A stretch of 61,499 bases of DNA, taken from the NCBI GenBank assembly GCA_013285735.1, contig JABDGZ010000006.1, positions 1 through 61,499 of the forward strand, in the 5' to 3' direction. The number at the start of each line of letters is the position of its first letter. Positions within the stretch are counted from its first letter, which is position 1. Source of the stretch: Candidatus Omnitrophota bacterium (lineage in GTDB: Bacteria; Omnitrophota; Gorgyraeia; Zapsychrales; Fredricksoniimonadaceae). The notes beneath the pieces were generated by a model. It was not told where the DNA came from. It searched no databases and saw only the letters and a program-made list of their open reading frames with translations. Of the stretch, positions 40,266 to 41,852 are shown piece by piece. A program made the position numbers and the translations under genes.

Positions 40266-40469
40266 TTATTGTTTATGAATCTGCCAGGCCTCATAAAAAG
40301 AGTAGGCCATGCCTAAGGCTATCCCTATCATCGTGCATAAAGGCAGGGTTTGGAATTTTTGGTCTAACCAAAATCCTAAAAGGGCTAAAATGAAGATGAT
40401 GCTGCCTAAGTTAAAGAGCTTAACTAACATATTAAGTTCCGGCTGCTTTGAAGGAAACTTCTTAGGCAT
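40266..40469 (-). CDS. AtpZ/AtpR-like small membrane protein
   Basis: 67 aa, 2 TM. LGFWLDQKFQTLPLCTMIGIALGMAYSFY resembles the ATPase_gene1 family. It lies directly upstream of atpB. Confidence 0.6.
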   Translation of the reverse strand: MPKKFPSKQPELNMLVKLFNLGSIIFILALLGFWLDQKFQTLPLCTMIGIALGMAYSFYEAWQIHKQ

Positions 40470-40770
40470 GTAGATGAGTTAAACAGAATATCAAAACCGC
40501 CAAGGTGATTGATAAAAGCATACCGGAAGGCATAAAAGTGCGAGTTTTGATCAGTCTTGAAATGAAACTGATGCACAATAGAACATTCAAACAGGTTAAG
40601 AATATCCAGGCAGGTTTGGGGGTGAAGGTCAAAAGCCAAACTCCTAATAAAATTAAAACACCACTGCTTAGGCCCATCACTAGAGAAATTTTACTCCCCT
40701 TCTTAAATCCAAGGAAGCCGCCTAAAATAAGAAAAAGAGCGTAGGTAATTAAAATAATATTATGAATCAT
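40462..40770 (-). CDS. TMEM14 (UPF0136) family membrane protein
   Basis: GGFLGFKKGSKISLVMGLSSGVLILLG ... TRTFMPSGMLLS parallels human TMEM14C [28 protein letters not shown] ... SGKFMPAGLIAG (from memory). It overlaps the hemA stop by 4 nt and the atpZ start by 8 nt. Confidence 0.75.
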   Translation of the reverse strand: MIHNIILITYALFLILGGFLGFKKGSKISLVMGLSSGVLILLGVWLLTFTPKPAWIFLTCLNVLLCISFISRLIKTRTFMPSGMLLSITLAVLIFCLTHLHA

Positions 40771-41852
40771 AGGCCTCCTTGAACACCCGGTGTTGCGGAG
40801 GTCTTTTCAAAAAAATCTGAATCCGGATTAGTTTGTAGTTTTGAAATTTTATCGTTAAACTCCAAAGTTTTTTGGCGGATAATGTTTTCTACTTCCTGAA
40901 TGGCGCTTTGGCGTTTTTTCATGCTGTTGTCAACCACTTCATGTAAATCATCGATAGAACTCAAATGGACGTGGGGGCCTAAGGTTTTTACTTCAGGATC
41001 AATGTTCCGCGGCATGGAAATATCGATCAAGACAAGCTTTCGTCCTTGGCGAATGTCCATGATATTAGCGATTTTTTCTTTATCCAAAATGTAATGCGGA
41101 GCTCCCACCGCGCAGAAGCAAATGTCTACCTCGCTTAAAATTTCTTTTATATTCCAAAAAGAAGCTGCGATGCCGTTGTACTGGGTTGCCAGCAGTTCTG
41201 CTTTTTCTCCGGTACGATTCATTAGAAATATTTTCTTAACTCCCAAATCATTAAGATGATTGAGGGCAATCTCCCCCATTTTACCAGCACCGATGACCAG
41301 CACCGATTTGTCCTGTAAATTGCCCGAGGCCTTTTCAGCCATTTCAATAGCGGCCCAAGCGATGGAAGACCCGCCATGAGCGATGGCTGTTTCATGCTGG
41401 GCTTTTTTACCGGTGCGTATGGCTAAATTTGTTAAAATATTAAAGTAACGCGATAAAGTGCTACCGTCCCGGGCGCGTTCAACCGCATGTTTGACCTGGC
41501 CTAAAATTTGTTTCTCTCCGAGAACTAACGATTCTAAACCACAAGATACCCGTAAAAGATGCTCTAAAGCATCGGGGCCTTCGAAGGTATAAATATAGGG
41601 AGTAAGATCAAAATCAAAATTAACTTTTTTGATCTTGGCAATCAAGGCGATGATAAAAGAAGAATCTACTGAAATGTCTATCCGCTTTAAATAAACTTCG
41701 ATGCGGTTACAGGTGGAAAGGACAAAACTTTCCGTGATCAAAGGATGATTTTTGAGCTCGCTTAAGAGCAGATCCTGCTGCAAAGGATTTAAATAAAATT
41801 TTTCCCGGATTTCAATGGGAACTGTCTTGTGGCTTAAACCTACAATAAACAT
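40767..41852 (-). CDS. hemA: Glutamyl-tRNA reductase
   Basis: MFIVGLSHKTVPIEIREKF and LSTCNRIEVY active-site Cys motifs, plus NADPH motif VIGAGKMG. At 361 aa it is on the short side. Confidence 0.92.
   Translation of the reverse strand: MFIVGLSHKTVPIEIREKFYLNPLQQDLLLSELKNHPLITESFVLSTCNRIEVYLKRIDISVDSSFIIALIAKIKKVNFDFDLTPYIYTFEGPDALEHLLRVSCGLESLVLGEKQILGQVKHAVERARDGSTLSRYFNILTNLAIRTGKKAQHETAIAHGGSSIAWAAIEMAEKASGNLQDKSVLVIGAGKMGEIALNHLNDLGVKKIFLMNRTGEKAELLATQYNGIAASFWNIKEILSEVDICFCAVGAPHYILDKEKIANIMDIRQGRKLVLIDISMPRNIDPEVKTLGPHVHLSSIDDLHEVVDNSMKKRQSAIQEVENIIRQKTLEFNDKISKLQTNPDSDFFEKTSATPGVQGGL

Follow-up and report, generated by a model that had tools for sequence, protein, structure and literature searches.

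A gene for a small TMEM14-family membrane protein lies between hemA, the gene for glutamyl-tRNA reductase, and the ATP synthase genes in a 61,499-nucleotide stretch of DNA (contig JABDGZ010000006.1, positions 1 to 61,499) from an uncultured Omnitrophota bacterium, whose assembly is 71% complete. The question raised by this locus is whether the TMEM14 gene belongs with haem synthesis, with the ATP synthase, or with neither of them. The whole stretch was analysed and is called the window here. Human TMEM14C, a protein of this family, is needed by red-cell precursors to make haem, and it is required for the delivery of protoporphyrinogen IX to the mitochondrial matrix (PMC4673221, citing PMC4191016). 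Some affinity purifications of enzymes of haem synthesis have also yielded TMEM14C, for which membership of a complex with ferrochelatase was proposed (PMC4545792). Bacterial members of the family were noted in the paper on plant FAX1, where no function was assigned to them (PMC4344464), and full-text literature searches found no published work on the gene context of bacterial TMEM14. Our analysis leads us to favour, tentatively and with a probability of about 0.42, a reading in which TMEM14 is a haem-module gene with a role in handling tetrapyrroles, while its link to the ATP synthase is positional.

The original prediction assigned the 102-aa protein to PF03647 (TMEM14, also UPF0136), and this assignment was confirmed by a match of 61 bits to the Tmemb_14 profile (E = 1.9e-16, cut-off 24.8) spanning profile positions 2-91 of 92, with 60.4 bits in the genome-level search. 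Hydropathy analysis gave four hydrophobic segments, at residues 1-23, 26-52, 52-75, and 78-102. A phmmer search with the single window sequence against human TMEM14C (PDB 2LOS) returned an E value of 2.8e-7, and a profile of 13 bacterial homologues matched TMEM14C with E = 1.4e-13, compared with 1.1e-8 for TMEM14A (PDB 2LOO). The blocks GGxxGYxKAGSxxSLxAG and KxMPxG are common to the bacterial proteins and TMEM14C, and orthologues in relatives are 61-85% identical to the window protein. Judged from its sequence, the 102-aa gene product is a genuine bacterial TMEM14-family protein of the inner membrane, closest to TMEM14C. Two other identities were considered and rejected. A divergent AtpI was ruled out, as the protein shows no match to PF03899 (AtpI) at E values up to 0.01 and its gene sits upstream of atpZ. 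A stand-in for AtpI was rejected as well, as TMEM14 coexists with an AtpI-like open reading frame (ORF) in genome G026, where the order is TMEM14-atpZ-AtpI-like-atpB, and with an unnamed 133-aa ORF at the same position in genome G032.

Within the window, the TGA stop codon of hemA and the ATG start codon of TMEM14 share the letters ATGA (..AAGGAGGCCTATGATT..), which makes a 4-nt overlap. Likewise, the ATG of atpZ lies 8 nt inside the TMEM14 gene, which ends in TAA (..CTACATGCCTAAG..), giving an 8-nt overlap. Both overlaps had been predicted and are borne out by the sequence, as is the predicted order atpB-E-F-H-A-G-D-C behind atpZ. The atpZ product scored 42.7 bits against PF09527 (AtpZ/ATPase_gene1; cut-off 26.6), its gene stands directly ahead of atpB, and its N terminus is conserved from residues 1-4 onward among same-genus loci; it is an AtpZ on these grounds. 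The spacing of 69 nt between atpZ and atpB is too short for an AtpI gene, and no PF03899 match was found anywhere in the window's genome or, over the cut-off, in 41 relatives. A scan of positions 33800-43000 revealed no convincing terminator between hemA, TMEM14, and atpZ, and consensus promoters in the same region were about as numerous as in shuffled sequence. On this arrangement, translation of hemA, TMEM14, and atpZ would be coupled, and a single transcript probably carries them together with the atp genes. Two further elements were observed near these junctions. Short motifs in the atpZ-atpB gap resemble an internal promoter, which the consensus scan did not list. Upstream of hemA, a promoter-like site is followed after 3 nt by a 14-bp hairpin that ends 6 nt ahead of the hemA ATG; because this site lies upstream of the hairpin, the hairpin could form part of the hemA leader and need not act solely as a terminator for the gene before it. 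The coordinates of the features are collected in Table 1.

Table 1 Features of the window and of related loci. Positions without a locus handle refer to the window; those of other loci are preceded by the handle
Feature	Position	Strand	Basis or remark
hemN	48318..46948	-	PF04055 and PF06969; co-directional, upstream of hemA
hemE	46979..45984	-	PF01208; co-directional, upstream of hemA
hemY-type oxidase	45983..44736	-	PF01593; co-directional, upstream of hemA
Promoter-like site	41920..41892 (in 41853-41935)	-	TTGATT, 17 nt, TATAGT with upstream TG
hemA, glutamyl-tRNA reductase, 361 aa, short form	41852..40767	-	PF05201, PF01488, TIGR01035
Shine-Dalgarno AGGAGG	40774..40779	-	within hemA 3' end, 3 nt ahead of TMEM14 ATG; sequence read directly
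TMEM14-family (PF03647/UPF0136) small membrane protein, 102 aa	40770..40462	-	Pfam and phmmer
atpZ, 67 aa, first gene of canonical atp unit	40469..40266	-	PF09527
atpZ-atpB gap	40197-40265	-	TTGCGT/TTGCCT and TAAGAT
atpB (F0 subunit a)	40196..39429	-	PF00119, 177 bits
atpE, atpF, atpH, atpA, atpG, atpD, atpC	39400..33978	-	ORF list and translations; tblastn synteny in relatives
X-fused ferrochelatase	L052:4670-6004	+	
X-fused ferrochelatase	L035:4587-5963	+	
X-fused ferrochelatase	L041:539-1837	+	
Stand-alone X	L085:7748-8005	+	adjoins TMEM14
X-less ferrochelatase	L095:5792-6790		precedes hemA
Na/H exchanger-EIIA	L036:4291-5985	-	between TMEM14 and atpZ
Na/H exchanger-EIIA	L088:7724-9418	+	between TMEM14 and atpZ
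Na/H exchanger-EIIA	L097:2191-3885	+	directly after TMEM14
Na/H exchanger-EIIA	L062:2110-3804	+	beside second, divergent atp-like operon
SOUL gene	L117:7053-7766	-	PF04832
SOUL gene	L119:7177-7839	-	PF04832
SOUL gene	L114:7081-7788	-	PF04832
Further SOUL-TMEM14 loci	L155, L165, L166, L168, L173, L176		
HrpB-type helicase	L123:8389-11112	+	example
Obscuribacterales locus	L131:8564-9388, then 9400-11223		example

Comparison with relatives reveals that the arrangement is conserved and that its haem side is richer than the window alone suggests. Of 40 relatives searched, 17 contain a PF03647 match. The order RR-hemA-TMEM14-atpZ-atpB is retained in every locus recovered from the window's genus, whereas most of the remaining families have an additional gene of about 1.3 kb between hemA and TMEM14, which encodes ferrochelatase (PF00762, 297-319 bits). 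Across the order, hemA is thus followed by ferrochelatase, which usually carries an N-terminal module that we call X, and then by TMEM14 and atpZ-atpB. Because the same gene order recurs in same-genus loci and, with ferrochelatase inserted, across the order, the arrangement is not a matter of chance. The evidence supports a haem link that is stronger than the hemA overlap alone shows, as TMEM14 directly follows ferrochelatase in most of the order.

The two flanks of TMEM14 differ in their constancy. All 33 Omnitrophota loci of this type carry a haem-related gene immediately upstream, namely hemA in 12, ferrochelatase in 17, and X alone in 4, and most of the gaps between that gene and TMEM14 fall in the range from -11 to +40 nt. 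On the other side, 29 of the 32 informative loci have atpZ or atpB as the next gene. At three loci (L036, L088, and L097), a 564-aa protein that joins a Na/H exchanger to a phosphotransferase-system (PTS) EIIA domain is encoded by the next gene after TMEM14 instead, and at L096 TMEM14 is followed by HEAT-repeat and unnamed genes, with no atp genes within 8 kb. Since the upstream partner is invariant and the downstream partner varies, we read TMEM14 as closing the haem module rather than opening the atp genes, an assignment behind which stand few independent rearrangements, about three. We argue that the atp unit begins at atpZ, the usual first gene of atp units, and that TMEM14 is outside it. 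The original prediction had hemA at the head of the atp operon; the adjacency is real, but what it reflects is two adjacent modules in a synteny conserved at the level of the order. As a separate observation, the gene for the exchanger-EIIA protein stands between TMEM14 and atpZ in two of these loci and also occurs beside a second, divergent atp-like operon (L062), and its product is possibly a cation transporter that goes with atp in these bacteria.

Module X is a hydrophobic N-terminal extension that adds about 100 aa to ferrochelatase; it bears the motif NIPLGY.RE..PKFS..WF.WIHASIP and matched no Pfam family at E values up to 1. At four loci (L085, L086, L092, and L098) it is instead encoded on its own, immediately ahead of TMEM14, by a gene called at 85-126 aa. 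A search with X returned only unnamed proteins of 81-97 aa, which form an orphan family. X is absent from the window's assembled genome, and no ferrochelatase was found in that 71% complete assembly. Four near-complete genomes of the window's genus carry a different ferrochelatase on another contig, which lacks X and is only 24-27% identical to the X-fused enzyme. As ferrochelatase was lost from its slot in this genus, hemA now abuts TMEM14, and the 4-nt overlap is a derived state that was produced by the loss of hemH. Two ferrochelatase types thus occur in the order; the X-less type replaces the X-fused one in the window's genus (L063-L067), and at L095 an X-less ferrochelatase gene precedes hemA.

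A second association with tetrapyrroles was found in another phylum. In Isosphaeraceae-type planctomycetes, a gene for a SOUL haem-binding protein (PF04832, 44-47 bits at three loci) is the divergent upstream neighbour of TMEM14. Two of those three genomes (5.9 and 7.2 Mb) have a single SOUL gene, namely the one that adjoins TMEM14. TMEM14 occurs in 66 of 81 genomes of that planctomycete order, and SOUL was adjacent to it in 8 of the 30 loci fetched. The pairing is one further independent event, and it is newly recorded here. A crude calculation, which is no statistical test, puts the probability of two tetrapyrrole-related events among about ten lineages by chance near 0.01. A PSCyt2/PSD1 gene often lies downstream in the SOUL-TMEM14 loci, followed by DUF1501 where this was checked.

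The biochemical setting is consistent with a haem module. The window HemA scored 146.8 bits against PF05201, 127.1 bits against PF01488, and 348 bits against the equivalog model TIGR01035 (cut-off 209.55), and its N-terminal catalytic and NADPH-binding domains are both present. The C-terminal dimerization domain was not found: the Pfam scan shows only the N-terminal and NADP-binding domains, and of the 416 positions of the TIGR01035 profile the match covers 2-340. HemA orthologues across the order are likewise short (347-364 aa among those with a plausible start call), and NCBIfam holds a model for a short form, with 338 positions (NF001909). A search of five genomes of the order, including four that are at least 94% complete, did not find ChdC/HemQ. 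Given this result and the presence of hemN and a HemY-type oxidase, a protoporphyrin-dependent route is likely, and judging by this gene content protoporphyrinogen IX and protoporphyrin IX are likely to be real intermediates in these bacteria.

Gene order shows the haem module of hemA, X-fused ferrochelatase, and TMEM14 directly upstream of, and co-directional with, the atpZ-led F1Fo operon. In the window's genus, removal of ferrochelatase from the slot, with a different enzyme encoded elsewhere in the genome, brought the hemA stop onto the TMEM14 start. In the mechanism that we propose, TMEM14 itself may serve as a membrane partner in the handling or hand-over of hydrophobic protoporphyrinogen IX or protoporphyrin IX. 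By analogy with what was proposed for mitochondrial TMEM14C, its place would be at the end of the haem pathway, after the HemY-type oxidase and before ferrochelatase. The tie to the ATP synthase would then be the joint expression of respiratory functions, with no shared mechanism.

Several findings weigh against a haem role for TMEM14. We searched one genome per species with the pattern KTxxFMPSGM, which is biased toward close relatives of the query, and obtained 80 loci, 46 of them outside Omnitrophota. These 46 came from Verrucomicrobiota, Planctomycetota, Terriglobia/Blastocatellia (Acidobacteriota), Obscuribacterales/Melainabacteria (Cyanobacteriota), and one member of Dongiaceae (Alphaproteobacteria). 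They were examined by tblastn with hemA, the two ferrochelatase types, hemY, hemE, hemN, and eight atp subunits as queries; hemB, hemC, hemD, and hemL were not among the queries. None of the 46 loci in these five phyla had a queried haem-synthesis gene within 8 kb of TMEM14, so that a general enrichment of TMEM14 near tetrapyrrole genes, for which the original prediction had proposed a neighbourhood survey, was not found outside the phylum. Pfam tallies and clustering of ORFs showed that the flanking partners are specific to each lineage. In 12 Verrucomicrobiota loci, for example, a gene for an HrpB-type DEAH helicase lies directly downstream of TMEM14 on the same strand, FG-GAP proteins adjoin TMEM14 in some Planctomycetota, and PilZ, aminotransferase, and phosphoesterase genes do so elsewhere. 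The haem adjacency in Omnitrophota traces to a single ancestral event in one order, so the loci there are not independent.

The pattern of loss within the phylum points in the same direction. Among genomes of the same family, G023 keeps hemA-atpZ-atpB and G022 keeps hemA-hemH-atpZ-atpB, both without TMEM14, and G018, which also lacks it, has hemA, an 84-aa remnant of X, a type IV pilin-like gene (likeness in the N-terminal sequence only), and atpB. Similarly, ferrochelatase and atpB are 170-300 nt apart in G040 and G249, which leaves no room for TMEM14. As TMEM14 was lost while hemA-(hemH)-atpZ-atpB stayed, the gene is dispensable for haem synthesis in these bacteria. Conversely, three genomes of other classes (G318, G080, and G104; 86-93% complete) have TMEM14 and no ferrochelatase that we could find, and TMEM14 of other-class Omnitrophota, 25-27% identical to that of the window, has unrelated neighbours. 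Haem is made on the cytoplasmic side in bacteria, so that no membrane crossing is needed. In addition, FAX1 of the same family exports fatty acids in plants (PMC4344464).

These lineage-specific neighbours, the frequent losses that leave hemA-hemH-atp undisturbed, the genomes with TMEM14 and no detectable ferrochelatase, and the function of FAX1 all suit an alternative in which TMEM14 is a small membrane protein of general function, such as a FAX-like carrier or flippase that moves fatty acids or other hydrophobic molecules. It would have no specific tie to haem or to the ATP synthase and would have landed once between two highly expressed respiratory modules and been carried along. We regard this explanation as a credible one, though still short of an even chance. 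It does not account readily for an upstream haem partner that is present in 33 of 33 loci next to a downstream partner that varies, or for the tight and often overlapping coupling to that upstream gene. Moreover, an unrelated lineage with a SOUL haem/porphyrin-binding neighbour, with the roughly estimated chance given above, and the fact that the best solved relative is TMEM14C both argue for a tetrapyrrole-handling role rather than a general one. Lipid-metabolism genes were not seen next to TMEM14 in the window or in the relatives examined.

TMEM14 could alternatively be an accessory of the F1Fo ATP synthase, a leader-gene product that, like AtpI, would work with AtpZ to assemble the c-ring or F0 or to supply cations. 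Its position directly before atpZ or atpB in nearly all informative Omnitrophota loci, the 8-nt overlap with atpZ, and the lack of AtpI in the window's atp operon would fit such a function. We surveyed 301 genomes of the phylum, each at least 80% complete, and found F-type atpB in 181, ferrochelatase over the cut-off in 73, and TMEM14 over the cut-off in 15. Every TMEM14-positive genome of this sample has atpB, which fits an accessory function, but 166 genomes have atpB without TMEM14. Where the junction is broken, either by the exchanger-EIIA gene or, as at L096, because atp genes are missing over 8 kb, it is the haem side that keeps TMEM14. The coexistence of TMEM14 with the AtpI-like ORF of G026 and the same-position ORF of G032, the missing PF03899 match, and the absence of the queried atp genes within 8 kb of TMEM14 at any of the 46 non-Omnitrophota loci likewise speak against it. 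One 151-aa metagenomic call (P0058) joins TMEM14 and AtpZ in one frame, starting at TMEM14 residue 20, and would favour a shared function if genuine; it needs a frame change and is probably an indel artefact. On balance, a role in the ATP synthase appears improbable. A 176-aa metagenomic call (P0051) similarly joins the HemA C terminus to TMEM14; it also needs a frame change and is likewise a probable indel artefact. As single calls of this kind, P0058 and P0051 were both rejected as Rosetta-stone fusions, and a search for longer TMEM14-containing proteins found no fusions, the long representatives being mis-called starts.

Some neighbourhoods outside Omnitrophota deserve a record of their own. 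The HrpB-type helicase of the Verrucomicrobiota loci has about 860-920 aa, and its pairing with TMEM14 is conserved (L104-L147). Five Obscuribacterales loci (L111, L126, L131, L140, and L144) carry TMEM14, an unnamed 260-274-aa protein, and then sdhA-sdhB; this unnamed protein may be a membrane anchor of succinate dehydrogenase. At the cyanobacterial-type loci L132 and L134, a small co-oriented ORF lies just upstream of TMEM14, and neither ORF matches PF03073 (TspO) or has a named family in the Atlas.

Returning to the haem-module reading, it is instructive to compare the window protein with known systems. Vertebrate TMEM14C is a PF03647 protein of the mitochondrial inner membrane with about 100-120 aa and four hydrophobic helices, and it has motifs in common with the window protein. 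Genetics link TMEM14C to the last haem steps (PMC4673221), whereas the window gene is linked to them by its adjacency to hemA and, in relatives, to ferrochelatase. However, the window gene is bacterial and its product has no organelle boundary to cross, its haem link comes from gene order alone, close relatives can do without it, and such a context is missing for the majority of bacterial members. Plant FAX proteins share PF03647 and the four-helix core with the window protein, but FAX1 has an extra N-terminal helix and a transit peptide of its own and acts on fatty acids. The AtpI and AtpZ leader genes (PF03899 and PF09527) resemble TMEM14 in that a small multi-helix membrane protein heads the atp operon and is coupled to atpZ. 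In contrast to AtpI, TMEM14 lacks a PF03899 match, lies upstream of atpZ, coexists with AtpI-like ORFs in relatives, and remains beside the haem genes where the junction has been disrupted.

The suggestion that bacterial TMEM14 is connected to haem in a way that foreshadows its eukaryotic function is thus upheld in part. The homology to TMEM14C, the adjacency to ferrochelatase in most of the order, and the SOUL pairing in a second lineage speak for it; the single origin in Omnitrophota, the repeated losses, and the three genomes with TMEM14 and no detectable ferrochelatase do not. A broader proposal, which we consider rather unlikely, is that TMEM14 proteins are an ancient tetrapyrrole-handling family. 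In these bacteria, TMEM14 would form a membrane complex with a membrane-anchored X-HemH and pass protoporphyrin(ogen) IX to it, the mitochondrial role of TMEM14C would be inherited from a bacterial one, and the SOUL-TMEM14 pair of planctomycetes would be a second form of this function.

For annotation, our analysis suggests that the TMEM14 gene belongs with the haem module and should not be taken for a new ATP synthase subunit. The ferrochelatase-TMEM14 and SOUL-TMEM14 pairs offer simple systems in which to ask whether members of this family bind porphyrins and pass them on.

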